Below, one piece after another: positions 7,696 to 32,000 of a stretch of 32,000 nucleotides of DNA. The DNA comes from Geotalea daltonii FRC-32 (GTDB lineage: Bacteria > Desulfobacterota > Desulfuromonadia > Geobacterales > Geobacteraceae), in assembly GCF_000022265.1 (NCBI RefSeq), contig NC_011979.1:2430001-2462000 (forward strand). Direction: 5' to 3'. Both the position numbers and the translations under genes were made by a program. The notes beneath the pieces are model-generated. The model did no database searches, was not told where the DNA came from, and worked only from the letters and a program-made list of their open reading frames with translations. How positions within the stretch are numbered: the stretch's first letter is position 1; each line of letters starts with the position of its first letter.

Positions 7696-9366
7696 ATGGC
7701 AGACGACAGACACTATACCTACGATATTTCCATGTTCCGTGACACCTTTGAAAACGACTTCACCTATCTCAACGGCTTTCTCCGGAATACCCACCGCTAT
7801 GCCGACCGCACCGCGCTCACCTGTTATCTGCGCAATCGCCAGTGGACCTACCGCGTGCTTAACGAGGACTGTAACCGCTTGGCCCATGCCCTTATGAAGG
7901 ATGGCGTCGGCAAGACCGACATCGTCATGTACCAGTTGTATAACTGCGCCGAGTGGGTCTTCATCTATCTGGCTCCCCAGAAGCTCGGCGCCATAAACTG
8001 CCCGATCAACTTTCGTCTTTCCTATGGGGAGACTGCGACGATAATCGATGACAGCAAGCCCAAAGTCTTTTTCTATGACGGCGCCGATGGGGAGACGGCG
8101 GAAAAGGCGCTCAACACGGCACAGCATAAGCCGAAAACGGTGGTCATGGTGGATATCTTCGGTACGGCAACGCCCTTTGCCGGCGCCATTTCCTATGAGG
8201 ACTACGTGCGCGACCAGCCCCATACCAATCCCGACATCCCACGTCCCACCCATATCTATGACGAGGTGACACGGCTCTATACCTCGGGGACGACGGGACG
8301 GCCCAAGGGTGTGCCCCTCAACAACATCAACGAGATCTTCAGCGCCCACGACGTCATCATGCACTTTCCCCTCTCCCCCAGGGACAAGACCCTGAACATG
8401 ACCCCATGGTTTCATCGGGGCGGGCTCTATTCAGGTGGGCCTAATCCCACTCTCTATGTGGGGGGGGAACTGGTACCCCTGCGCCATTTCCATGCGGCAA
8501 CGGTCATGGGGCTGGCCGAGGAGCATGGCCTCAGCTTCCTTATCGGCGCGCCGGTCACCCTTTCGGCGCTGGCTGACGAACAGCAGAAGAATCGCCGGGA
8601 CCTGAGCCGGTTGAAGGGGATCGTCACCATGGGAGCCCCCCTGGAGCGGGCGGCCTGCATCAGGTTTCAGGAGGTGCTGACCCCCAACATCTTCAACGGC
8701 TACGGCAGCACGGAGGCCTTCTGGAATACCTTCCTGCGCCCCTATGACCTGCCGGACATGGCCGGATCGGCCGGTCGATCCTGCACTGACGACGACATGG
8801 CGGTGGTCAGGGTATACCCGGACCGGTTGGCGGAACCGGACGACCACGTGGCGAAGGACGGTAATGAGGTGGGTGAGGTGATCGTCCGGGCGGCGGGCAA
8901 ATGTTCGTTCAGCTATGTCAATCGACCGGAGGACGCCAAGGCGAAGTTTTACAAGGGCTGGCTCTATATCGGCGACCTTTGCACCTGGAACGAGCAGGAG
9001 TTTATGACCGTGGTCGGCAGGAAAGACGACATGTTCATCTCCGGCGGCGAAAACATTCACCCGGTGCAGGTGGAGGCGGTTCTCAACGAACATCCCGAAG
9101 TGACGAACAGCCTGGTGGTCGGTATGCCAGACCCCAAATGGGGGCAAGTGGTGGTTGCATACGTAATAAAATCTGGTGAGATGCTTACCGCTAAAGGACT
9201 GGATGAATATTGCCTGCAACACCCGATGCTGGCCAATTACAAGAGACCGCGATACTACCGCTTCGTCGATACCTTGCCGATGACAGCAACAGGCAAGCTG
9301 CTCCACTACAAGGCAAAGGTGCAAGTGCAGGAGGATTCCCAGGCCGGGCTGTTCGAGAAGGTTTGA
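7696..9366 (+). CDS. AMP-forming acyl-CoA synthetase / AMP-dependent ligase
   Basis: AAGGAG lies 7 nt upstream of the ATG. The adenylate-forming core motif YTSGTTGRPKGV is present, together with GYGSTE, a hinge region GDL...GRKDDMFISGGENI, and an A10 motif PMTATGK (Lys codon 9295-9297). Confidence 0.85.
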   Translation: MADDRHYTYDISMFRDTFENDFTYLNGFLRNTHRYADRTALTCYLRNRQWTYRVLNEDCNRLAHALMKDGVGKTDIVMYQLYNCAEWVFIYLAPQKLGAINCPINFRLSYGETATIIDDSKPKVFFYDGADGETAEKALNTAQHKPKTVVMVDIFGTATPFAGAISYEDYVRDQPHTNPDIPRPTHIYDEVTRLYTSGTTGRPKGVPLNNINEIFSAHDVIMHFPLSPRDKTLNMTPWFHRGGLYSGGPNPTLYVGGELVPLRHFHAATVMGLAEEHGLSFLIGAPVTLSALADEQQKNRRDLSRLKGIVTMGAPLERAACIRFQEVLTPNIFNGYGSTEAFWNTFLRPYDLPDMAGSAGRSCTDDDMAVVRVYPDRLAEPDDHVAKDGNEVGEVIVRAAGKCSFSYVNRPEDAKAKFYKGWLYIGDLCTWNEQEFMTVVGRKDDMFISGGENIHPVQVEAVLNEHPEVTNSLVVGMPDPKWGQVVVAYVIKSGEMLTAKGLDEYCLQHPMLANYKRPRYYRFVDTLPMTATGKLLHYKAKVQVQEDSQAGLFEKV

Positions 9367-9491
9367 CGCAGATTTTTTGTACCAGGTGCCGATGGCCGTC
9401 ACGCCTCGCCGACGACTGTGCCATGCCGTCGGCCGTCTCTGCCCGTCCGGTAAGGATTTTAGTGCTTTGTCTTGCCACCCTTCCAATAAAT

Positions 9492-9523
9492 CAAGGACTT
9501 AGCCGACACAGGCTAAGTCCTTG
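9492..9523. terminator. Bidirectional hairpin between convergent genes
   Basis: A perfect 13-bp stem CAAGGACTTAGCC-gacaca-GGCTAAGTCCTTG sits between the stop of the + gene (9366) and the stop of the - gene (9553). There is no strong U-tract. Confidence 0.5.
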
Positions 9524-9552
9524 CTGTTACAGATATGCCTGATCGGGCCTGA

Positions 9553-10398
9553 TCACCGGGCTGTCCCAGCTTCGCCTTGTACCACTCCAAGGCCATACCA
9601 CCAGTTGGTGACGGGTGATTTCTCAAAAAGGATATCTCTGGTTTTTCCGCGGAAGCTGTAGGAAACAGAGCCTTTTTCCTTGGCAAGCATCTCCCGGAAC
9701 GCCCTGTCGACTTCCTCACCAAGCTCCCTGGGGTCCCTGAAGATGAGCTCCTCATCCCAATCGATGGCCATAAGCGGTTGCGCATCGAATGAGAAAAAGA
9801 TGATGTTCGAAGGCAATGCCATCTCCCGCTTGATCTGCCCGCTGAGCTTGTCGAGAAAGACTGATGCCCCCAGCATGCCAACCACTTTCTTGTCCTTGAG
9901 TACCGGTACTGCCACGACGGCAACATTTTTTTCGCTTGTTTTGCTTACCACCAGATCGCCAATCACTGTTTTTCCTGCCAATAGACGGGAAAAATACGGG
10001 CGTGATTTCAGGTTAGCCTCGGCACGGTCTTTCTCCACCGTCCAGTAGTCCCCGGAGGGGAGGGCAAACCACATCAGCGCCGGCACGTTCCTGTCGGCGA
10101 CATTCTTGAGCAACTCCTTTGTCTTTTGCCAATCTCCGGCGATGACCTCGTCCCGTGCCGCCAGTGTTTTGAACTCGTCGGCTATCTTCACCAGATGGCC
10201 ATCGCCGATGGTAATGAGAGAAGCGAGAGCCACCGTGCCGTCAACGGTGAAGGCTTCTGCGTTCCCATTATTATTCATGGCAGGCAATTTGCCGTTGCCG
10301 TACCAAATCTGGGCGTTTCCTGCCTCCACCCCGACAACGGCACACAGGTAAGCCATGATCATCAGCAAACGAACTGAGAAGAGGATGCGTTCTACCAT
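9553..10398 (-). CDS. Secreted/periplasmic Cache-like (PDC-fold) domain protein without an output domain
   Basis: AAGGAGG lies upstream of the ATG at 10398. It has an N-terminal signal/anchor MVERILFSVRLLMIMAYLCAVVG. The body resembles Cache sensor domains (PYFSRLLAGKTVIGDLVVSKTSEKNVAVVAVPV, GMLGASVFLDKLS). There is no kinase, MCP or GGDEF part. Confidence 0.55.
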   Translation of the reverse strand: MVERILFSVRLLMIMAYLCAVVGVEAGNAQIWYGNGKLPAMNNNGNAEAFTVDGTVALASLITIGDGHLVKIADEFKTLAARDEVIAGDWQKTKELLKNVADRNVPALMWFALPSGDYWTVEKDRAEANLKSRPYFSRLLAGKTVIGDLVVSKTSEKNVAVVAVPVLKDKKVVGMLGASVFLDKLSGQIKREMALPSNIIFFSFDAQPLMAIDWDEELIFRDPRELGEEVDRAFREMLAKEKGSVSYSFRGKTRDILFEKSPVTNWWYGLGVVQGEAGTAR

Positions 10399-25435: not shown

Positions 25436-25655
25436 TGCCGATGCCAGGATAAATTCTTGTAAGAAAAAGCCCGCATCTTTGCTGATATATGTAGCAAATT
25501 ATACTTGGTTCCGATCGTCGCGATTCGAGAAAAGGTAAGCAGAATGCCCAACCAGTGCCTTAGACGCCGACCGAGGCTGAGAAGCGCCCCGGCGCGTCAA
25601 GGCCCGAACCGTTGAACAAAAACAAATTAAATGAAAGGCATTGCAAGTGCCATAT

Positions 25656-26336
25656 ATGAGTGAAAAATTTACTGGTTTTCCCCCTTCAGCAATTCAGTTT
25701 CTCAGAACACTGCGTGAAAACAACAGCAAGGCGTGGTTTGACCTGCATAAACCGGATTATCAGAATGATCTTCTGAAACCGTTGCAGGCTCTGGCTGCCG
25801 GGCTTGGACCATTGATGTTAAGCATTGACCCCGATTTGGAAGTGACCCCGGCAATAAACAGAACCATCTCCCGCATCTACCGGGACACGCGATTTTCCAG
25901 GGATAAGTCCCCATATAAGACCAGCCACTGGATTACATTCAAGCGATTGCGGCAGGAATGGAAGGATTACCCGGCGTTCTTCTTTGAGATATCACCAGAC
26001 TCGTATCGGTACGGTATGGGATTCTACAGCGCCAGCCGCCAGACCATGGATAATTTCCGTACTGCTGTCGATATGAATCCGAAGAAATTTCTTACGGCGA
26101 TTTCGTTCTACTCAAACAACAAAATCTTCACGATTGAAGGCGAGCAGTACAAGCGACCATTGAAAGCAGACATCTCGATGGAATTACAGGCCTGGTACAA
26201 TCGCAAAAGTGTGTACCTTGTCAGCAATCATCAAATAGATGGGAACTTCATTGACAAAAAACTGATCAAGGAATTGCAGTACGGATTTGAAATGTTAGCT
26301 CCTTTCTATCATTACCTGTGCAAGGTGGCTGGTTAA
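25656..26336 (+). CDS. DUF2461 (TIGR02453)-family protein
   Basis: F.GFPPSAIQFLRTLRENNSKAWFDLHKPDYQ and RIYRDTRFSRDKSPYKT match the family signature. The start is uncertain: ATG 25656 or TTG 25641. Confidence 0.7.
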   Translation: MSEKFTGFPPSAIQFLRTLRENNSKAWFDLHKPDYQNDLLKPLQALAAGLGPLMLSIDPDLEVTPAINRTISRIYRDTRFSRDKSPYKTSHWITFKRLRQEWKDYPAFFFEISPDSYRYGMGFYSASRQTMDNFRTAVDMNPKKFLTAISFYSNNKIFTIEGEQYKRPLKADISMELQAWYNRKSVYLVSNHQIDGNFIDKKLIKELQYGFEMLAPFYHYLCKVAG

Positions 26337-26460
26337 AATGTTCAACAATCGGGTGCTGCTGTTTTTCCGCATTACTACACAGCAGAATCTCCGGGTACCG
26401 GCCGAACTGTTGAGCTCACAAAAGTATCCCCAGGCCACATCTTTCTCCCATTGAGAAATT

Positions 26461-27012
26461 ATGAACAAACATTTTGAAGACCTTCTTTTCAATACGAATT
26501 TGGACCTGAGCCTGAGTGTGATTAACAGGGACAATCTATCGCAGTTATCGGTAACTTCCCGGATTGGCGCACCGAGAGTATTCCTTGGCCTCCTCTTCGG
26601 CATTCCCTGTCTGGTTCTGCTCTTCTACGGGGTACGCCACCAGGGGATATATATCCTTCTTTCACTGGTCTTTTGCCCGCCCCTTGCAATTCTCAGTCTT
26701 CTGTTCGGTCTGACCAGACAGAAAAAGACCTTCATCCCCTCCCACGGCGTGGCGATCAAATCCTGCAGCCTGCTCCACATCCAGCGTGATATGCCCGTCC
26801 AGCTCCCAAAGAATGGCGTGTTGCAGGCCTATAAGCGATGGAGTTCCGGAGGCGAATCCGGGGGTGGTTGCTACTTCTATCATGTGGAGATTCAGGGATT
26901 GAAGGGCTTTGGCTTCTGCATCGCCAAAAATAAGAAAAAACGGGATGACTTTGCAACTGATCTTGCCAAATTTCTGGGCTATGAAGTTCGTGATCAGGAT
27001 GGGCAGTTATGA
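26461..27012 (+). CDS. Hypothetical two-TM membrane protein
   Basis: The 183-aa ORF is AT-richer than its surroundings and has two hydrophobic helices (VFLGLLFGIPCLVLLFYGV, IYILLSLVFCPPLAILSLLFGL). It has no clear SD and no recognisable domain. Confidence 0.4.
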   Translation: MNKHFEDLLFNTNLDLSLSVINRDNLSQLSVTSRIGAPRVFLGLLFGIPCLVLLFYGVRHQGIYILLSLVFCPPLAILSLLFGLTRQKKTFIPSHGVAIKSCSLLHIQRDMPVQLPKNGVLQAYKRWSSGGESGGGCYFYHVEIQGLKGFGFCIAKNKKKRDDFATDLAKFLGYEVRDQDGQL

Positions 27013-27058
27013 ATGGTAAGGCGTGGGCAAGCCTTGCTGAACGTTGACTGAAGGAAAT

Positions 27059-27460
27059 TCAAACTGTCCAATCAAGAAGGTTGATGGAGGGGACGCGCAA
27101 AAACTCGCGGGTGTTATTTGTAACCAGAGGGATTCCCAATGATACGGCGTGAGCGGCAATGAGCATATCCATGGAACCAATGGGGGAGCCGGCTTTTTCA
27201 AGAGTCGATCTGATATCTCCATAAACGTGGGCAGCCGCTTCATCATAAGCGACCACCTCCAGGGGGATGATGAACTCGTCGAGAGCTTTGGCGTTTTTTT
27301 CTCGGTGAGCGCTTTTTGCGACCCCGTAGCGCAGTTCGGAGAGGGTTATGGAGGAAATGCCAATGTCACCGATCTCGTACTCCAGAAAATGCTTCAACAC
27401 GGTGTCCGGCTGTTGCTTGATGATATAAATACAGATATTGGTGTCGAGCAGCAGTTTCAT
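27059..27460 (-). CDS. vapC: VapC PIN-domain toxin (MvpT/initiator-tRNA endonuclease-like)
   Basis: PIN acidic residues are in context: LLDTNICIY, SSITLSELRYG, GSMDMLIAAHA and LVTNNTREF. This closely resembles enteric VapC/MvpT. It overlaps the vapB stop by 1 nt. Confidence 0.9.
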   Translation of the reverse strand: MKLLLDTNICIYIIKQQPDTVLKHFLEYEIGDIGISSITLSELRYGVAKSAHREKNAKALDEFIIPLEVVAYDEAAAHVYGDIRSTLEKAGSPIGSMDMLIAAHAVSLGIPLVTNNTREFLRVPSINLLDWTV

Positions 27461-27687
27461 CAGAAATTTTCCCGCTTGTCCTGTTCAGGTTGTATGCGTT
27501 CAGACATGAAGTCGCTTGAGAATTTTTTGAGACTGCCGAATAAAGAATCCCACGAATCGCTCCGGGGGATCAATTGGACGATGTTGCCGCATTTCTTTAT
27601 GAATACCTCGCTGTCATCGAAGCGAAATTCCTTAGGGAGCCTGACTGCCTGGCTTTGTCCATTTTGAAATATTTTTGCTGTTTTCAT
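27460..27687 (-). CDS. vapB: VapB antitoxin (AbrB/SpoVT-type)
   Basis: The 75-aa product starts MKTAKIFQNGQSQAVRLPKEFRF, a swapped-hairpin AbrB motif. A GGAGG SD lies upstream. Confidence 0.85.
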   Translation of the reverse strand: MKTAKIFQNGQSQAVRLPKEFRFDDSEVFIKKCGNIVQLIPRSDSWDSLFGSLKKFSSDFMSERIQPEQDKRENF

Positions 27688-27703
27688 GATCGGCCTCCAG
27701 GTT

Positions 27704-27726
27704 AATATATACCTTAAGTATATATT
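27704..27726 (-). promoter_or_regulatory. Palindromic operator candidate upstream of vapBC
   Basis: A perfect 9-bp inverted repeat AATATATAC-cttaa-GTATATATT lies 17-39 nt upstream of the vapB start. This is the usual position for VapBC autoregulation. Confidence 0.5.
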
Positions 27727-27816
27727 TGGGTTTTCGGGCTGGCAAGTGAAATTTCAACCGCGAGAGCAAAAATGAGATCCAAAAAAGGCTTGCCTGCCCC
27801 CTTTCTCTCTATAGAA

Positions 27817-28188
27817 CTACCACGTTTGAGTTACAGAATCAGGAGTTACCGCCAGGGTGGCGCGCAACCAATCGAATTTCGACTTGAGCAGATCGAAATC
27901 GGGGCCGGAAGTGATGAAGGCTGCCTTGCCCTTGATGAGAAAACCGGCGCCCGGGCCATGCAGGCCTTGCACTTTGCTGCTCCCCAGGGTAATGAGAACC
28001 TCGGGATTATAGGCTATGTTCTTCTCGGTTTTATGCATGTAACCGGCGGGGATCAACAGGCGGCCATCGGCGGAGATCCGGATGTAACTGTTCCAGGTAT
28101 TGACCATATGCGGCCCATCCTGGCCTAAAGTAGCGATGGCAACTACGCCGTCCTGTTTCAGTATCTCCAGCAGCTTTTCGGGAATCAT
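27817..28188 (-). CDS. Pyridoxamine 5'-phosphate oxidase-like FMN-binding split-barrel protein
   Basis: An internal ATG at 28188 is preceded by AGGAGG at 8 nt. KQDGVVAIATLGQDGPHMVNTW and the overall ~123-aa size fit the PNPOx-like fold. The longer ORF-track start has no RBS. Confidence 0.6.
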   Translation of the reverse strand: MIPEKLLEILKQDGVVAIATLGQDGPHMVNTWNSYIRISADGRLLIPAGYMHKTEKNIAYNPEVLITLGSSKVQGLHGPGAGFLIKGKAAFITSGPDFDLLKSKFDWLRATLAVTPDSVTQTW

Positions 28189-28389
28189 CGATACTACCTC
28201 CTGTGATTGTGTTGTTGTAAGAGTACGTGTTCTGTGGGGGAAGGCGATTGCAAAGGTAGTAATGGTACCCGATGGCGAGCGTCTGGTCAACGGCATACTC
28301 TTAAGTAGACCTCATCCTCAGGTTTCGTGAGACTTGTACCTGGAGTTTTTTGAGCAGCCCTACATTCTGTGACTTTTGTCAGCAATCTG

Positions 28390-28417
28390 AGCCCGCACCT
28401 GCTGCGGGCTTTTTTTT
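28390..28417 (+). terminator. Strong rho-independent terminator with no + strand gene upstream
   Basis: The 8-bp GC-rich stem AGCCCGCA-cctgc-TGCGGGCT runs into an 8-T tract (28410-17) that shares its first T with the stem. The nearest upstream gene is on the minus strand. Confidence 0.6.
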
Positions 28418-28427
28418 ATTCCTCCCC

Positions 28428-28482
28428 CGAAAGACATTTCGCTGAAAATTCTTCTTTGTACCCTTTTCCGAAATCCATTTCG
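28428..28482 (+). promoter_or_regulatory. Two related palindromes; candidate enhancer-binding-protein sites
   Basis: CGAAAgacaTTTCG (28428-28441) and CGAAAtccaTTTCG (28469-28482) are 41 bp apart centre to centre. They lie about 35-90 nt upstream of the -24 element. Confidence 0.4.
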
Positions 28483-28514
28483 CATATGCCATTGTGAATT
28501 CAATAGCTTATGAC

Positions 28515-28529
28515 TGGCACATCCCTTGC
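28515..28529 (+). promoter_or_regulatory. Sigma-54 (RpoN) -24/-12 promoter
   Basis: TGGCAC (28515-28520), 5 nt, then TTGC (28526-28529) is an exact match to the TGGCAC-N5-TTGC core. It lies about 50 nt upstream of ATG 28580. Confidence 0.6.
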
Positions 28530-28579
28530 CGTAGTTATGGTGTCGTCTTTTCAATCAAGCTTGCGCACAGGAGGTACCA

Positions 28580-29239
28580 ATGCACGATATTGACAGGACA
28601 TGGAACGAATTTGGTTCAGGCGAGACTGAGATGGGGGAAACAGGTTTCGAGTTCGACCAGGAGATCGGCCAGGAGATCGGCCAAAGTGGAGAAACGTCTA
28701 GTCCCTTTTCTGAACTGCAGGAAATGGAACTGGCCGCGGAACTTCTTTCGGTCAACAATGAGTCGGAGCTTAACAACTTTCTTGGCTCCCTGATCAGGAA
28801 AGCGGGCAGTGCGGCGGGAAGTTTCATTTCCTCGCCTACTGGTCAGGCTCTGGGGGGGATACTGAAACAGGCGGCAAAAAAGGCGTTGCCGGTTGTCGGC
28901 AGTGCCATTGGCGGGTACTTCGGCGGGTCCACCGGTGCAAACATAGGCGGCAAGCTGGCTTCTTCCGCTGGCAAAGCACTAGGCCTTGAATTGGAAGGGA
29001 TGAGCCAGGAAGACCGGGAATTTGAAGTTGCCCGCCATTTTGTCAGGTTTGGCGGAGCGACCGTCAAAAGAGTGTTGCAGACATCAGGGTTCAGCCCGCA
29101 GGCCGTTAACCGGGCTGCAGTGGCAGCGGCCCAGCAATATCTGCCCGGACTGGTCGGAGGTGCTACCGTCGGGCAGAGTTGCGGCAGAGGTGGCAGGTGG
29201 TACCGCCGCGGCAACAAGGTAATTCTCGTGGGCCTGTGA
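28580..29239 (+). CDS. Hypothetical protein, paralogue A: acidic N-terminal region + glycine-zipper region + basic C-terminal RRG motif
   Basis: AGGAGG (28569-28574) lies 5 nt before the ATG. The 219-aa product shares block-wise conserved motifs with the next ORF. I recognise no family. Confidence 0.7.
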   Translation: MHDIDRTWNEFGSGETEMGETGFEFDQEIGQEIGQSGETSSPFSELQEMELAAELLSVNNESELNNFLGSLIRKAGSAAGSFISSPTGQALGGILKQAAKKALPVVGSAIGGYFGGSTGANIGGKLASSAGKALGLELEGMSQEDREFEVARHFVRFGGATVKRVLQTSGFSPQAVNRAAVAAAQQYLPGLVGGATVGQSCGRGGRWYRRGNKVILVGL

Positions 29240-29284
29240 CAACCATTGAAGGACCTAAATCACTTTTGGAAAAAGGAGGCATCC

Positions 29285-29983
29285 ATGTGGGAACAGCAGG
29301 AATTCGGCACGGAAATGCAGGAGCAGGGTGAGAACTACGAGATGTTCGGCGAGATGCCTGAGATGAGCGGCGAATTTCAGGGAGAATCCCCCCTGAACGA
29401 GATGCAAGAAATGGAGCTGGCGGCAGAACTGCTCTCCATCAGCAATGAGCGGGAACTGGAGCAGTTTCTGGGCAGCCTGGTGAAGAAGGCAGCGGGTTTT
29501 ATTAAAAGTCCGATCGGCAAGGCTCTGGGTGGTGTTCTCAAGGGTATTGCCAAAAAAGCACTCCCCATTGTTGGCGGGGCCATTGGCAGTTTTGTCGCTC
29601 CGGGTGTAGGGACGGCAATCGGATCTTCCCTGGGGTCGGCAGCAGGCAAGATGTTCGGCCTGGAACTGGAAGGAATGAGCAATGAAGACAAGGAATTCGA
29701 GGTAGCGCGCCGATATGTGCGCCTGGCCACGGCAGCGGCGCGACGGGCGGCATATGCTCCGTCACGCATGCCGCCCCATATGGCTGCGCGACAGGCGGTG
29801 ATGATTGCAGCGCGCAGATATGCACCAGGTCTCATTAGCTTCCAGCAGCAAAACGGAAATGCTGAACCGTGGAGCAGCGGAGGGGATATGGGAACCGACG
29901 GTTTTCAACAGCAGGATATGGGGGAAAGGAACAGCGGACGCTGGGTTCGTCGCGGGCGGAATATCATAATACTTGGAGCATGA
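29285..29983 (+). CDS. Hypothetical protein, paralogue B of the preceding gene
   Basis: AGGAGG (29274-29279) lies 5 nt before ATG 29285; the ORF-track TTG at 29246 is unlikely. Blocks shared with paralogue A are QEMELAAELLS, FLGSL, ALGG.LK..AKKALP.VG.AIG, GLELEGMS.ED.EFEVAR and GRW.RRG..(V/I)IL.G at the C-terminus. Confidence 0.7.
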   Translation: MWEQQEFGTEMQEQGENYEMFGEMPEMSGEFQGESPLNEMQEMELAAELLSISNERELEQFLGSLVKKAAGFIKSPIGKALGGVLKGIAKKALPIVGGAIGSFVAPGVGTAIGSSLGSAAGKMFGLELEGMSNEDKEFEVARRYVRLATAAARRAAYAPSRMPPHMAARQAVMIAARRYAPGLISFQQQNGNAEPWSSGGDMGTDGFQQQDMGERNSGRWVRRGRNIIILGA

Positions 29984-31296
29984 ACCCGGCCATGGATAAT
30001 GCGGCGCTGCAAATACTCAAAGGTGAGGCGCAAAGCCTGATCACCCGCATTGATAGAATGGAGCCATTCGCGCTGCGCATGCCGATGGTTCTTGCCGCTG
30101 CGGTTCCCCTTCCGGCACAGGTTGCCATAGAGCGTCACCTGTCCGGAAAAAGGCTCAAAATGCGCGCCATGATGACGGGGTATCTCAAGTGGTTGGAGAG
30201 CCCGGAAGGACGCGCGGCATCTCCTTCTCTGGCCCAACGGCGTTTCTCGTTTTTGCGATTAAGGTTCATTGCCATTCTCGCCCAGCTGGACATCTTTGCC
30301 ATTGTCTTCAACCAGCGCAGCGAGCACGACACCGGGATCTGGCTTTCAGGGCTCGATGTGTTCGCCGCTGATGCCCTTACTCTTCCGGGAAAGTACTACC
30401 AAGCTCCACCTGTCATCTGTTTTCTCGAGAGAAGTCCTGGAGCGGCTATTCGACGGGCGAGGACGAGGCTTCCCGGCGGCGATGACAACCCGGTTGCTGT
30501 CATCCAGATTCCCCGGGAGCGGATGATCGGCGGTGGGATTGCATCATCGCTGGTGCATGAAGTGGGGCATCAGGGGGCGGCACTGCTGGATCTGGTGACT
30601 TCCTTGCGCATTGAACTGCAAAAGAGGAAGCGTAACGCCGGAAATGACCAGATTGCCTGGCGCTGTTGGGACCGGTGGACTTCGGAGATTGTGGCTGATC
30701 TGTGGGCAGTGGCCAGACTGGGAGTCTCTGCCACCGTTGGCCTGATGACGGTGGTGGGGTTGCCGAAACCATTCATGTTTCGTGTCGATTTCGAAGATCC
30801 CCATCCGGCACCTTGGATCAGGGTTATGCTTTCCTGTGCCATGGGGCAGGAACTGTACCCTCATTCCCAGTGGCAGGCACTGGCGAAAAACTGGGAGGCA
30901 TTCTATCCCTGTGAGGGATTGGAGGCCGGAAGACTGCGGCTGTTTGCCCTTTTGCAAAAGACGATGCCGGAATTTGTCAAGTGGCTGGTGCACTACCGCC
31001 CGAAGGCCTTGCGCGGGAAGACCCTGCAAGATGCACTCTCGAACACTGATCTGCAACCGGCGCGCCTCGGGGCTATATATAAATCGTGGAAAGAAATGCC
31101 GCAGCTGATAAAGACCGCTTCTCCCACCCTTGTATTTGCCGTCATCGGCCAGGCGAAAATGAATGGACTGATAACCGCTGAAGAGGAAAGCCGGGTTTTG
31201 GCTGATATGCTCAGGTACTGGGCGCTGAAAATAACCCTGGACACAACGGCAGTATGTGCAGGAATGTCGCGTGCCCATCAACCGTTGACTGTCTGA
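29980..31296 (+). CDS. HExxH zinc-metallopeptidase-like protein (gluzincin-type HEVGH ... SEIVAD)
   Basis: ATG 29980 overlaps the upstream TGA (ATGA), and GGAG lies at 29974-29977. The product carries SSLVHEVGHQG and, about 40 aa downstream, WTSEIVADLWA, which resembles the ExxAD third-ligand helix of M48/M78-type peptidases. Confidence 0.65.
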   Translation: MNPAMDNAALQILKGEAQSLITRIDRMEPFALRMPMVLAAAVPLPAQVAIERHLSGKRLKMRAMMTGYLKWLESPEGRAASPSLAQRRFSFLRLRFIAILAQLDIFAIVFNQRSEHDTGIWLSGLDVFAADALTLPGKYYQAPPVICFLERSPGAAIRRARTRLPGGDDNPVAVIQIPRERMIGGGIASSLVHEVGHQGAALLDLVTSLRIELQKRKRNAGNDQIAWRCWDRWTSEIVADLWAVARLGVSATVGLMTVVGLPKPFMFRVDFEDPHPAPWIRVMLSCAMGQELYPHSQWQALAKNWEAFYPCEGLEAGRLRLFALLQKTMPEFVKWLVHYRPKALRGKTLQDALSNTDLQPARLGAIYKSWKEMPQLIKTASPTLVFAVIGQAKMNGLITAEEESRVLADMLRYWALKITLDTTAVCAGMSRAHQPLTV

Positions 31297-31361
31297 AGGA
31301 AAAGGAGATGTCTGCATCACTATCCGCGCATAGGCCCCAAGTAAGATAACAGGAGGATGTC

Positions 31362-32000
31362 ATGAAAAAAGACGAGATCAATGCCGACGTAAAGATAACG
31401 CCGAAAAAGCCTGATCCAAAGAAGGGTGATCGGATTCTTGAAGAGGGGATAAAAATCACCGGTGATGCTGCTGATCTGCTTCGTAAAGCACTGGCAGAGC
31501 CAAAGGAAGTTACGCTGACCCGTCCGGAAGCATTACCCACCGATGACCAGGCACTCTGGGTAGCCATCCGCAACAGGACGACGGCCGTCAATTTCGAGCG
31601 GTATCGAAATTTCATAGGCAGGGTCTTCTGTGACGACGGGGGAAATGAACAGAAACGGTATTTCAGAGGGAAGAGCGATCAGCTTAAGGATGTGAGAAAC
31701 TTCGATGCACGCCTCAGCATTAATTCCATCGATTCCTATAACGTATTGCGGTTTGCCACCGAAATCTTCCTCATAATGGAATGCGGCGTGGTTATTGACA
31801 AGACCGGGGACCCGCTCTTTGGTGAAGATGAGGAAAACATCCGTTCCATCAATTTCGAGGAGGCAGACAGTTTCGAGGAAATCAAGGAAAGGCTGCAAAA
31901 TTATCTGGGCAATACCACCTATCTTCCTTACCTGGACCGGATTCTCAATGCCCTGATCGAGGACTGGAAACTGGAGGAGAAAACGAATCCTTACTGCGGC
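31362..32000 (+). CDS. Hypothetical protein, N-terminal 213 aa only (continues beyond the window)
   Basis: AGGAGG (31351-31356) lies 5 nt before ATG 31362. My own translation (MKKDEINADVKITPKKPDPKKGD...ALWVAIRNRTTAVNFERYRNF...YLPYLDRILNAL...NPYCG) is open to the window end. The ORF is missing from the ORF track, probably because it has no stop codon. I recognise no domain. Confidence 0.6.
   Translation, partial: MKKDEINADVKITPKKPDPKKGDRILEEGIKITGDAADLLRKALAEPKEVTLTRPEALPTDDQALWVAIRNRTTAVNFERYRNFIGRVFCDDGGNEQKRYFRGKSDQLKDVRNFDARLSINSIDSYNVLRFATEIFLIMECGVVIDKTGDPLFGEDEENIRSINFEEADSFEEIKERLQNYLGNTTYLPYLDRILNALIEDWKLEEKTNPYCG

Follow-up and report, generated by a model that had tools for sequence, protein, structure and literature searches.

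What is encoded by the four genes that close the 32,000-nucleotide stretch of the Geotalea daltonii FRC-32 genome analysed here (contig NC_011979.1, positions 2,430,001 to 2,462,000; hereafter the window), and do they form a unit on their own? The genes, called A to D in the following, lie on the plus strand at 28580-29239 (A, 219 aa), 29285-29983 (B, 232 aa, a paralogue of A), 29980-31296 (C, 438 aa) and 31362-32000 (D, which runs past the window end with the first 213 of its 511 codons inside). They correspond to Geob_2221–2224, the window proteins A, C and D being 100% identical to Geob_2221, Geob_2223 and Geob_2224, respectively. An earlier note on the same DNA had described them as a four-gene module under a sigma-54 promoter, each gene with a consensus ribosome-binding site, and had proposed a membrane-active, protease-activated effector pair. 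All four co-directional open reading frames (ORFs) were found where that note had placed them, separated by a 45-nt gap (A-B), a 4-nt ATGA overlap (B-C) and a 65-nt gap (C-D), and the remainder of D, correctly recognised as cut by the window end, was obtained from contig L001, the downstream DNA recovered by an exact look-up of C. The ribosome-binding sites were as described for A, B and D, each with AGGAGG 5 nt ahead of its ATG, and not for C, where GGAG sits only 1 nt from the ATG and is poorly placed; at this spacing, translation of C probably depends on coupling to B via the ATGA overlap. The limit of four genes did not hold: the unit comprises 7-10 genes and an activator gene located beyond the window end. 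As set out below, it is a sigma-54-associated cassette found in around ten phyla, for which we tentatively propose a role in breaching the cell envelope.

In a scan of one genome per GTDB species, at least 538 loci were found, and the best 80 of these were analysed in detail. The component counts given here refer to loci with enough flanking DNA and are based on our own ORF calling with BLAST query-based labelling. Around C, proteins of the A/B family were found in 75/75 loci and D in 73/73, followed by E, a pyridoxal phosphate (PLP) enzyme, in 60/69, the amidohydrolase G in 48/56, and H, a bacterial enhancer-binding protein (bEBP), in 46/54. The gene order was constant: the A/B genes, numbering one to three, are followed by C, D, E and a variable slot, then in many loci by an M20 dipeptidase gene, and finally by G and by H, which is mostly convergent with the rest. 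The Geotalea locus conforms to this order, with two activator sites, the promoter, A, B, C, D, E, a slot gene encoding the 206-aa protein F, G, and a convergent H. Upstream of C, two A/B copies were counted in 40 loci, a single copy in 30 and three copies in 1 locus, and a further protein with the A/B core is located in the slot in 23 of 73 loci. The suggestion that these genes are inherited together as a sigma-54-driven unit, with the fourth gene D as a further component, is thereby upheld across genomes from many phyla. By gene content, A/B, C and D form the invariant triad of the cassette.

The best 80 loci came from Geobacteraceae, Nitrospira, Nitrosomonas, Nitrosospira, methanotrophs, Competibacter, Accumulibacter, Burkholderiales, Acidobacteriota, Verrucomicrobiota, Planctomycetota (including an anammox metagenome-assembled genome, MAG), Chloroflexota and Myxococcota. 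Overall, the cassette occurs in Desulfuromonadota, Nitrospirota, Alpha-, Beta- and Gammaproteobacteria, Acidobacteriota, Verrucomicrobiota, Planctomycetota, Chloroflexota, Myxococcota and Actinomycetota, amounting to approximately ten phyla in the best 80 loci, and it is also carried by megaplasmids of Rhizobium, Ensifer and Paraburkholderia. The C and D families each have more than 5,300 database proteins at E ≤ 0.001, and the A/B family likewise has thousands of members. Across phyla, C and D are 55-60% identical, with E in the same range.

The regulatory elements proved as constant as the genes. The promoter TGGCACatcccTTGC (28515..28529, plus strand) is the only exact match to the -24/-12 consensus TGGCAC-N5-TTGC in the window, as had been claimed, and lies 51 nt before the ATG of A, with a predicted transcription start near 28540 and a leader of ~40 nt. 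The same motif, with at most two mismatches in its 10 positions and none in GG and GC, was found ahead of the first A/B gene in 67/76 loci, of which ~30 were perfect, and sites matching at least 9 of 10 positions clustered on the coding strand at -2000 to -500 from the start of C (64/155, as compared to ~1 per 500-bp bin elsewhere). When the upstream regions were aligned by eye, a palindrome was noticed with the form CGAAR-N4-YTTCG, often extended to GCGAAR-N4-YTTCGC. Using a strict count, it was present within 300 bp upstream of the promoter in 58/61 loci, and 103 of the 116 such sites in these loci fall within that interval. Two copies were found in 45 loci, always 41-42 bp apart, corresponding to four helical turns. 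The window holds exactly two, CGAAAGACATTTCG at 28428..28441 and CGAAATCCATTTCG at 28469..28482, centred 80 and 39 bp before TGGCAC, respectively, and the 41-bp spacing is that of the other loci. The arrangement is that of classic paired upstream activator sites, and the palindromes are the predicted binding sites of H.

The H gene is located 5.6 kb past the window end (L001 10188-11588, minus strand), convergent with the operon. Its product matches Sigma54_activat (E 7e-58), contains the Walker A motif GESGTGK and the GAFTGA motif, and has a weak HTH_8 match at its C-terminal helix-turn-helix. The N-terminal domain of ~120 residues is family-specific and conserved across all loci, with a receiver-like pattern (GIVFFDE ... 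RVLAI ... GASDVLxW) that may be described as pseudo-receiver-like; no kinase is encoded in the cluster around H. The downstream extension suggested in the earlier note thus did reveal a bEBP. Secretion genes, which were also to be looked for, were not conserved in the 20-kb neighbourhoods, and the cluster encodes no membrane transporter or secretion apparatus. Taken together, we consider the architecture and regulation of the cassette as described here to be practically certain.

Directly upstream of the first activator site lies a terminator-like hairpin followed by a T run (28389..28421, plus strand; GAGCCCGCA-cctgc-TGCGGGCTT, then eight T). Its stem (28389-28411) has 9 base pairs, 6 of them G-C, making it the best terminator-like site in the region, and it is conserved in Geotalea sp. 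SG265 (L003) apart from a wobble change. The terminator reported earlier is in this sense real, but its proposed role as an insulator is only inferred, because no co-directional gene ends just before it, the nearest plus-strand ORF upstream ending at 27012. The hairpin may insulate the region, or it could end an unannotated small transcript; Rfam gave sub-threshold matches only (a Betaproteobacteria toxic sRNA and a Trp leader).

A dependence on sigma-54 is further indicated by cassettes that bring the sigma factor with them. Actinobacteria have been described as organisms that "lack the Sigma-54 system", and only some Chloroflexi have sigma-54 (Francke et al. 2011, PMC3162934). A Solirubrobacteraceae MAG (L087) nevertheless carries a full cassette (two A/B genes, C, D, E, M20, G and a convergent H), preceded by two palindromes and a promoter matching 9/10 positions, and adjoined by an rpoN gene (723-2039) and a lytic-transglycosylase-like gene, both with a -24/-12 motif of their own in front; the unit is flanked by Tn3 and IS21 genes. 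In Nocardiopsis sp. YSL2 (L086), a minimal cassette was found, consisting of C, rpoN (8532-9845, encoding the RpoN box ARRTVVKYR), a tandem-duplicated A/B gene, D, a signal-less Amidase_2 protein and H, with -24/-12 motifs ahead of C and of A/B. Both rpoN genes are named 'RNA polymerase factor sigma-54' by NCBI or UniRef, and two further rpoN genes adjoin the cassette in Chloroflexi (L060, 1417-2697; L067, 17024-18391). As the cassette thus carries its own rpoN into groups in which sigma-54 is reported to be absent or rare, its dependence on this factor is likely to be strong. The region upstream of the Nocardiopsis A/B promoter (L086 9845-10001) has no CGAAR-N4-YTTCG site and instead contains two copies of a different palindrome, CGCGCAGCCGGCTGCGC, ~44 bp apart, which suggests that the activator and its site have co-evolved. 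Judged from these loci, the cassette can be reduced to A/B, C, D, a wall hydrolase and a bEBP, with rpoN added where the host lacks sigma-54. A sigma-54 factor riding in with a single operon is an exception to the textbook rule for Actinobacteria, and the rpoN-carrying cassettes offer a clean natural experiment on the transfer of a whole alternative-sigma regulatory circuit.

The proteins of the invariant triad were compared to known families and structures. In agreement with the view that A-D belong to no characterized family, none gave an above-threshold match in Pfam, NCBIfam, PADLOC or PHROGs, and none has a clear transmembrane or signal segment, with the glycine zipper of B being borderline. 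Protein C was rightly singled out as an HExxH protein: HEVGH is found at residues 193-197, and in 77 homologues this motif is invariant along with EIVAD at 236-240 (E236 and D240), which places an ExxxD 39 residues after the HExxH. Because the combination of HExxH and ExxxD is the gluzincin signature, C is a plausible zinc peptidase. In the AlphaFold2 model (predicted local distance difference test, pLDDT, 89.9; predicted template modelling score, pTM, 0.88), C is all-alpha with two short strands, HEVGH being within a predicted helix (187-202) and EIVAD within a neighbouring one (234-247). No PDB sequence was matched by a profile search with C, and a HMMER profile searched against 1.8 billion representatives revealed no bridge to a known family among the best 150 of 1,137 clusters. 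We therefore describe C as a putative gluzincin-type metalloprotein, with a fold that has no match in the PDB or among the predicted viral structures of BFVD. A distant relative with ~30% identity over the HExxH core is encoded on the Bradyrhizobium quebecense plasmid pBq66S1MBa (L084 5479-6900), where the neighbours are phospholipase D-like, patatin-like, DUF2252, S8 peptidase and two CHAT-domain proteins, and neither A/B nor D is present. As this context resembles a conflict island, the C-type domain may be reused in other systems.

Protein D is a highly conserved all-alpha protein (AlphaFold2 model, pLDDT 70.9), with no PDB sequence-profile match and no Foldseek match in the PDB below E 0.2. 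The structure and profile comparisons thus bear out the earlier impression that neither C nor D can be placed in a known family. Weak Foldseek matches of both proteins to membrane and tape-measure proteins were rejected as generic helical similarity. Many D homologues are longer, at 550-750 aa (e.g. P0245, P0258 and L054 11359-13506), and have an extra N-terminal Ig-like beta-sandwich with weak Por_Secre_tail, Y_Y_Y or PKD matches at residues ~30-95, which the Geotalea D does not have.

A and B share 49% sequence identity and, as had been noted, combine an acidic N-terminus with a glycine-zipper stretch. In A, an acidic N-terminus (MHDIDRT...) is followed by an EMELAAELL..FLG helix, the glycine-zipper stretch, an EFEVAR helix and the C-terminal GRWYRRGNKVILVGL; in B, the uncharged glycine-zipper segment lies around residues 93-125 and the protein ends in GRWVRRGRNIIILGA. 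The same order was found throughout the family, with an acidic N-terminus, SPxxExxEMELAxELLxxxxExELxxFLG, an uncharged Gly/Ala/Ser zipper of ~30 residues, GLELEGxSxEDxEFEVARRYVR, a variable spacer and a terminal GRWxRRGxxIxLxG. The proteins are conserved along their whole length, each being longer than 200 aa. The best 19-residue hydropathy was 1.52 for B, in the glycine zipper, and 1.01 for A. In a profile search of PDB sequences, nothing was found for either protein, and two candidate assignments were rejected, as Gly-zipper_Omp (B, 17.7 bits against a cut-off of 25) and the phage tape-measure PHROGs both cover the Gly-rich stretch only, the latter as a compositional match. The EMELAAELL..FLG helix gave a sub-threshold match (14.8 bits) to PF23135 'TRI4_N' in A (residues 50-83, ~28727-28828 in the window) and B (residues 44-69, ~29414-29491), and the family was matched above threshold (33.1 bits) by a longer, 397-aa homologue, P0025; some prior curation of this helix domain thus exists, since it is modelled by Pfam. 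A cis fusion is found in Nitrosomonas, where the A/B core stands between a PG_binding_1 domain with a GIY-YIG-like region and an Amidase_2 domain, with the GRW motif at the domain boundary.

The most diverse part of the cassette is the slot between E and G, from which 71 ORFs in 46 loci were scanned against Pfam. PG_binding_1 (31 ORFs) and PG_binding_3 (18) were most frequent, followed by Peptidase_M20 (9), OmpA and Trypsin (5 each), Amidase_2 (3) and GIY-YIG (2), with single ORFs matching VanY, M74, M23, DUF2272, 3D, Extensin-like_C and a beta-lactamase-like family; HNH, T5orf172 and PT-VENN were seen in single slot proteins as weak, sub-threshold matches. Of the ORFs with PG_binding-type domains, 57/59 are encoded on the operon strand, 3-8 kb downstream of the start of C, i.e. 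in the slot, and such an ORF was present in 39/61 loci with enough DNA, in some cases with a murein-hydrolase domain. No signal peptide or transmembrane segment was found at the N-termini of the slot proteins. These instead begin, at the extreme N-terminus, with a leader of the form M-x4-F-x-F-E-x-x-P-F (for example MNQEFSFETIPFE, MKRLFTFEAEPFE and MNYSLTFEAEPFE), followed by an acidic run, in many cases also an Arg/Pro-rich run, and the wall-binding domain. One shared leader thus precedes diverse enzymatic domains, and when the strict pattern F[ED]xxPF was searched near start methionines on the operon strand, 31 of the 33 matches were in the slot. The Geotalea slot protein F has relatives in a planctomycete and a myxobacterium, where it corresponds to the C-terminal parts of slot proteins.

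A third type of N-terminus, M-H-x3-C-x-C-x2-C (for example MHDLTCNCQKCR), was observed on A/B-like proteins in the slot and on cargo proteins (L029 15714-16901; L023 15722-16414; L070 15544-17508; L072 15438-16115; L081 16769-17353). It resembles the MHDLDRT start of the A-type proteins, and the cysteine cluster could be a small zinc-binding element.

Three further enzymes complete the common form of the cassette. E is a 354-aa class I/II PLP enzyme (Aminotran_1_2, E 2e-10) with BioF as its best PDB match (E 1.5e-11), followed by Kbl, SPT and CqsA. The PLP lysine motif SLAKGFG is retained, and DDTQ replaces the DDAH of BioF-type enzymes. Because E scores far below every equivalog cut-off (64.8 bits, as compared to 426 for BioF), it was assigned to a new alpha-oxoamine-synthase subfamily, and its sequence is that of a divergent alpha-oxoamine-synthase-like enzyme. 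G gave an Amidohydro_2 match, and the M20 protein scored above the NCBIfam 'dipeptidase' cut-off (467 bits, as compared to 441). Since all three are missing from the minimal Nocardiopsis cassette, they were judged to be accessory; a possible task for them would be the synthesis or breakdown of a small molecule or muropeptide with feedback on H.

What such a cassette might do can be outlined as follows. The conserved regulatory sequences suggest that the promoter would remain silent until a signal lets H, bound at the two palindromes, activate the sigma-54 RNA polymerase. The operon would then produce, in the cytoplasm and without Sec or Tat signals, the presumably membrane-active A/B proteins along with leader-tagged cargo enzymes, i.e. 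peptidoglycan-binding amidases, peptidases, nucleases and others. C would remove or remodel the acidic N-terminal pro-regions of A/B and of the cargo, and D would act as a further core partner essential to the process. The uncharged glycine zipper of A/B may subsequently insert into and breach the cytoplasmic membrane, so that the cargo could reach the cell wall. Much as when a holin acts together with an endolysin that has no signal peptide, the producer would probably be lysed or permeabilised; this could serve as an abortive or altruistic death, or set the cargo free as bacteriocins. An envelope-breaching effector system with holin/endolysin-like or bacteriocin-like logic is consequently the function we tentatively favour, while placing it slightly below an even chance. 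The earlier idea of a toxin, bacteriocin or abortive-type envelope device is still the best reading in this respect. The notion of a membrane-active pair was, on the other hand, too narrow: an envelope effector is retained, but 30 loci have a single A/B copy, and in some cases the A/B core is joined to enzymes in cis. Activation by a protease, also proposed in the earlier note, is still putative, C having the two invariant motifs and no zincin fold match. The most informative features had gone unseen there: the variable slot rich in peptidoglycan-binding proteins, the leader common to the cargo, the paired activator sites and the rpoN gene that travels with the cassette. A more extensive version is conceivable, in which the cassette is a mobile 'regulon in a box' (paired activator sites, a bEBP, and sigma-54 where needed) that gates a new protein machine. 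Here, the FExxPF leader and the GRWxRRG module would be recognised by C and D, which would then process the cargo and pass enzymes of the wall-degrading and nuclease-like kinds through the glycine-zipper proteins, as a release or killing route apart from known secretion systems and phage lysis genes. We regard this as possible though doubtful.

Several observations weigh against an envelope-breaching function. A and B have no classical holin transmembrane helix and no match to a holin family in Pfam or PHROGs. For C, Foldseek returned best E values of only 0.64 (PDB) and 0.22 (BFVD), i.e. no zincin fold was matched despite a confident model. A PG_binding ORF is absent from 22/61 loci, including that of Geotalea, where the slot protein F has no peptidoglycan-binding domain and shows just a weak, sub-threshold GIY-YIG match (19 bits, as compared to 22.6; GIYFIY...WYVGKA). 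For a conflict system, the 55-60% identity of C, D and E is unusually high, and it is in keeping with an enzymatic or housekeeping-like function. C had no tblastn match in 50,697 phage records, so that the cassette is absent from this phage collection and a phage origin is unsupported, and it is also absent from the PADLOC defence models, for which only one chance-level match was found (E 0.05). Finally, no immunity-like genes were seen beside the cargo genes in the loci inspected, where no systematic search was made.

An alternative is that the cassette is an interbacterial weapon, with the slot proteins and A/B being polymorphic bacteriocin-like toxins aimed at other cells. In that case, the FExxPF leader and the disordered acidic and Arg/Pro-rich regions would be uptake or translocation epitopes as in colicins and pyocins, or a secretion signal for an exporter encoded elsewhere, and C and D would mature or chaperone the toxins. 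The placement of unrelated murein hydrolases and nuclease-like domains behind one shared leader would be well accounted for, as would the weak PT-VENN match in one slot protein and the tight sigma-54 gating, which suits toxic cargo; moreover, three reports describe glycine-zipper toxins or translocation motifs in effectors of type VI and type VII secretion systems (T6SS and T7SS; PMC10240207, PMC10434224, PMC12744356). However, adjacent immunity genes would be expected and were not seen, as in L029, where two cargo genes abut each other and then G. The cluster is also without a transporter or secretion apparatus of its own, no single exporter or uptake route is common to hosts that range from diderm to monoderm, and the core genes are far more conserved than those of usual toxin loci. 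A weapon of this kind thus appears unlikely. The conservation of the core, on the contrary, would suit a non-lethal programme of cell-wall remodelling, stress response or development, in which peptidoglycan is reshaped or recycled under a specific condition, E, M20 and G process muropeptide-derived amino compounds, and A/B serve as Psp-like envelope-stress proteins. The dipeptidase-level score of M20 and the retained PLP lysine motif of E point the same way, and cell-exterior functions, among them peptidoglycan precursors, are over-represented in sigma-54 regulons (PMC3162934). Against this, nuclease-type cargo (GIY-YIG, T5orf172, HNH) has no role in wall remodelling, the wall enzymes have no export signals, the minimal Nocardiopsis cassette does without the supposed processing enzymes E, M20 and G, and the cassette is patchy and mobile, as seen from the Tn3 and IS21 flanks in L087 and from the megaplasmids. 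We consider such a programme rather improbable.

A biosynthetic cluster for a modified peptide or small molecule was also considered, with A/B as precursors bearing acidic leaders, C as the leader peptidase, and E and G as tailoring enzymes. Between one and three 'precursor' paralogues in tandem at the start of an operon, adjoined by a putative peptidase and a PLP enzyme, and a conserved C-terminal GRWxRRGxxIxLxG are features that such a cluster could have, but putative precursors of more than 200 aa, conserved from end to end, are not easily reconciled with it. In addition, no known maturase family for ribosomally synthesized and post-translationally modified peptides was found in the Pfam and NCBIfam scans, E and G are dispensable in some versions, and the slot with its peptidoglycan-binding cargo would be left unexplained. 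Biosynthesis of this type is therefore highly improbable.

The local surroundings in Geotalea appear to have little to do with the cassette. The earlier note had placed the module at the edge of an AT-richer accessory stretch with a vapBC pair; both are present, with a G+C content of 45-50% across 25600-28600 as compared to 52-58% on both flanks, but this neighbourhood is common only to other copies of the same Geotalea region. It was for this reason ruled out as part of the unit and is best regarded as incidental. The vapBC pair (27059-27687, minus strand) encodes a 133-aa VapC with a PIN domain and a 75-aa antitoxin of the MazE/AbrB type, with a 1-base overlap, and has a sigma-70-like promoter at 27745-27717. 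The other genes in the low-G+C stretch encode a PNPOx-like protein (27817-28188, minus strand), a 183-aa protein with two strongly hydrophobic segments (26461-27012, plus strand) and a DUF2461 protein (25641-26336, plus strand). Beyond the window, a xylose-isomerase-like TIM-barrel gene (AP_endonuc_2) and an NTP_transf_5 nucleotidyltransferase gene (L001 11622-13138) adjoin the activator gene; outside Geotalea neither was found with the cassette, and within it they were seen in 3 and 2 loci, respectively.

No earlier description of the cassette was found in the literature searched, with a moderate risk that one exists elsewhere, and it is not covered in a conflict-systems paper from the Aravind lab. 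C and D are widespread yet have no family, solved structure or described function. The cassette is carried by nitrifiers, methanotrophs, anammox bacteria, Accumulibacter, rhizobial megaplasmids and myxobacteria, among others, and thus bears on organisms that matter in ecology and in engineering. With the cis elements and the activator defined, tractable hosts are available in Paraburkholderia phymatum, Ensifer adhaerens, Variovorax and Myxococcus. If the proposed function is true, the cassette would represent a new class of regulated lysis or bacteriocin system, and its leader-cargo rule would be usable for protein release.

When compared to known systems, the phage holin-endolysin cassettes and the 'type 10' release of proteins by lysis cassettes are similar in that signal-less peptidoglycan hydrolases, which a part of the cassette loci encode, are co-expressed with small membrane-active proteins and must stay off until triggered, and the PG_binding_1 plus Amidase_2 architecture found in the cassette is typical of endolysins. 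They differ in that A/B are without classical holin helices, C was not found in the phage collection, lysis cassettes have nothing equivalent to C and D, expression is under sigma-54 and a bEBP, and the cargo includes nuclease-like domains. With colicin- and pyocin-type bacteriocins and polymorphic toxins, the cassette shares tight regulation and a cytoplasmic cargo without signal peptides, built from a conserved N-terminal part and a swappable enzymatic domain. In contrast to these, no immunity genes were seen in the loci inspected, the cassette has no known trafficking domain or colicin-type lysis gene, the M-x4-F-x-FExxPF leader is not a described Ton or Tol box, and the core is unusually conserved. 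Glycine-zipper toxins, such as Tde1 (T6SS) and TelE and EsxX (T7SS), have an uncharged (G/A/S)xxxG run capable of membrane insertion, as do A/B. The Caulobacter proteins CdzC and CdzD are likewise glycine-zipper toxins, and two paralogues sometimes act together. There is, however, no homology to A/B beyond composition and no LXG, T6SS or type I secretion system context, and A/B add the ELAAELL..FLG helix, the EFEVAR helix and the GRWxRRG terminus.

On the regulatory side, the closest parallel is the PspF/Psp type of sigma-54 regulon, in which a dedicated activator, paired palindromes and a -24/-12 promoter likewise serve a single envelope-related operon. The cassette differs from it in having no PspA/IM30, in the pseudo-receiver-like N-terminal domain of H, and in that the whole regulon, sometimes with rpoN, moves horizontally. 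C resembles thermolysin-type gluzincins in its HEVGH with E-x-x-x-D 39 residues on, but has no Pfam or MEROPS-type family match and no zincin match in Foldseek. In the CqsA/LuxO system, an alpha-oxoamine synthase makes an autoinducer that controls a sigma-54 bEBP, and the cassette similarly links E, a member of the same enzyme family with an alpha-hydroxyketone autoinducer synthase among its weak NCBIfam matches, to a sigma-54 activator. By analogy, a link of this type between E and H may be envisaged, although it is speculative, as E is far below the equivalog cut-offs and has DDTQ in place of DDAH, and H has no phosphorylatable receiver partner in the cluster. The nearest analogies thus share the logic of the cassette but none has its defining components, and we rate it as a kind of system not yet described.

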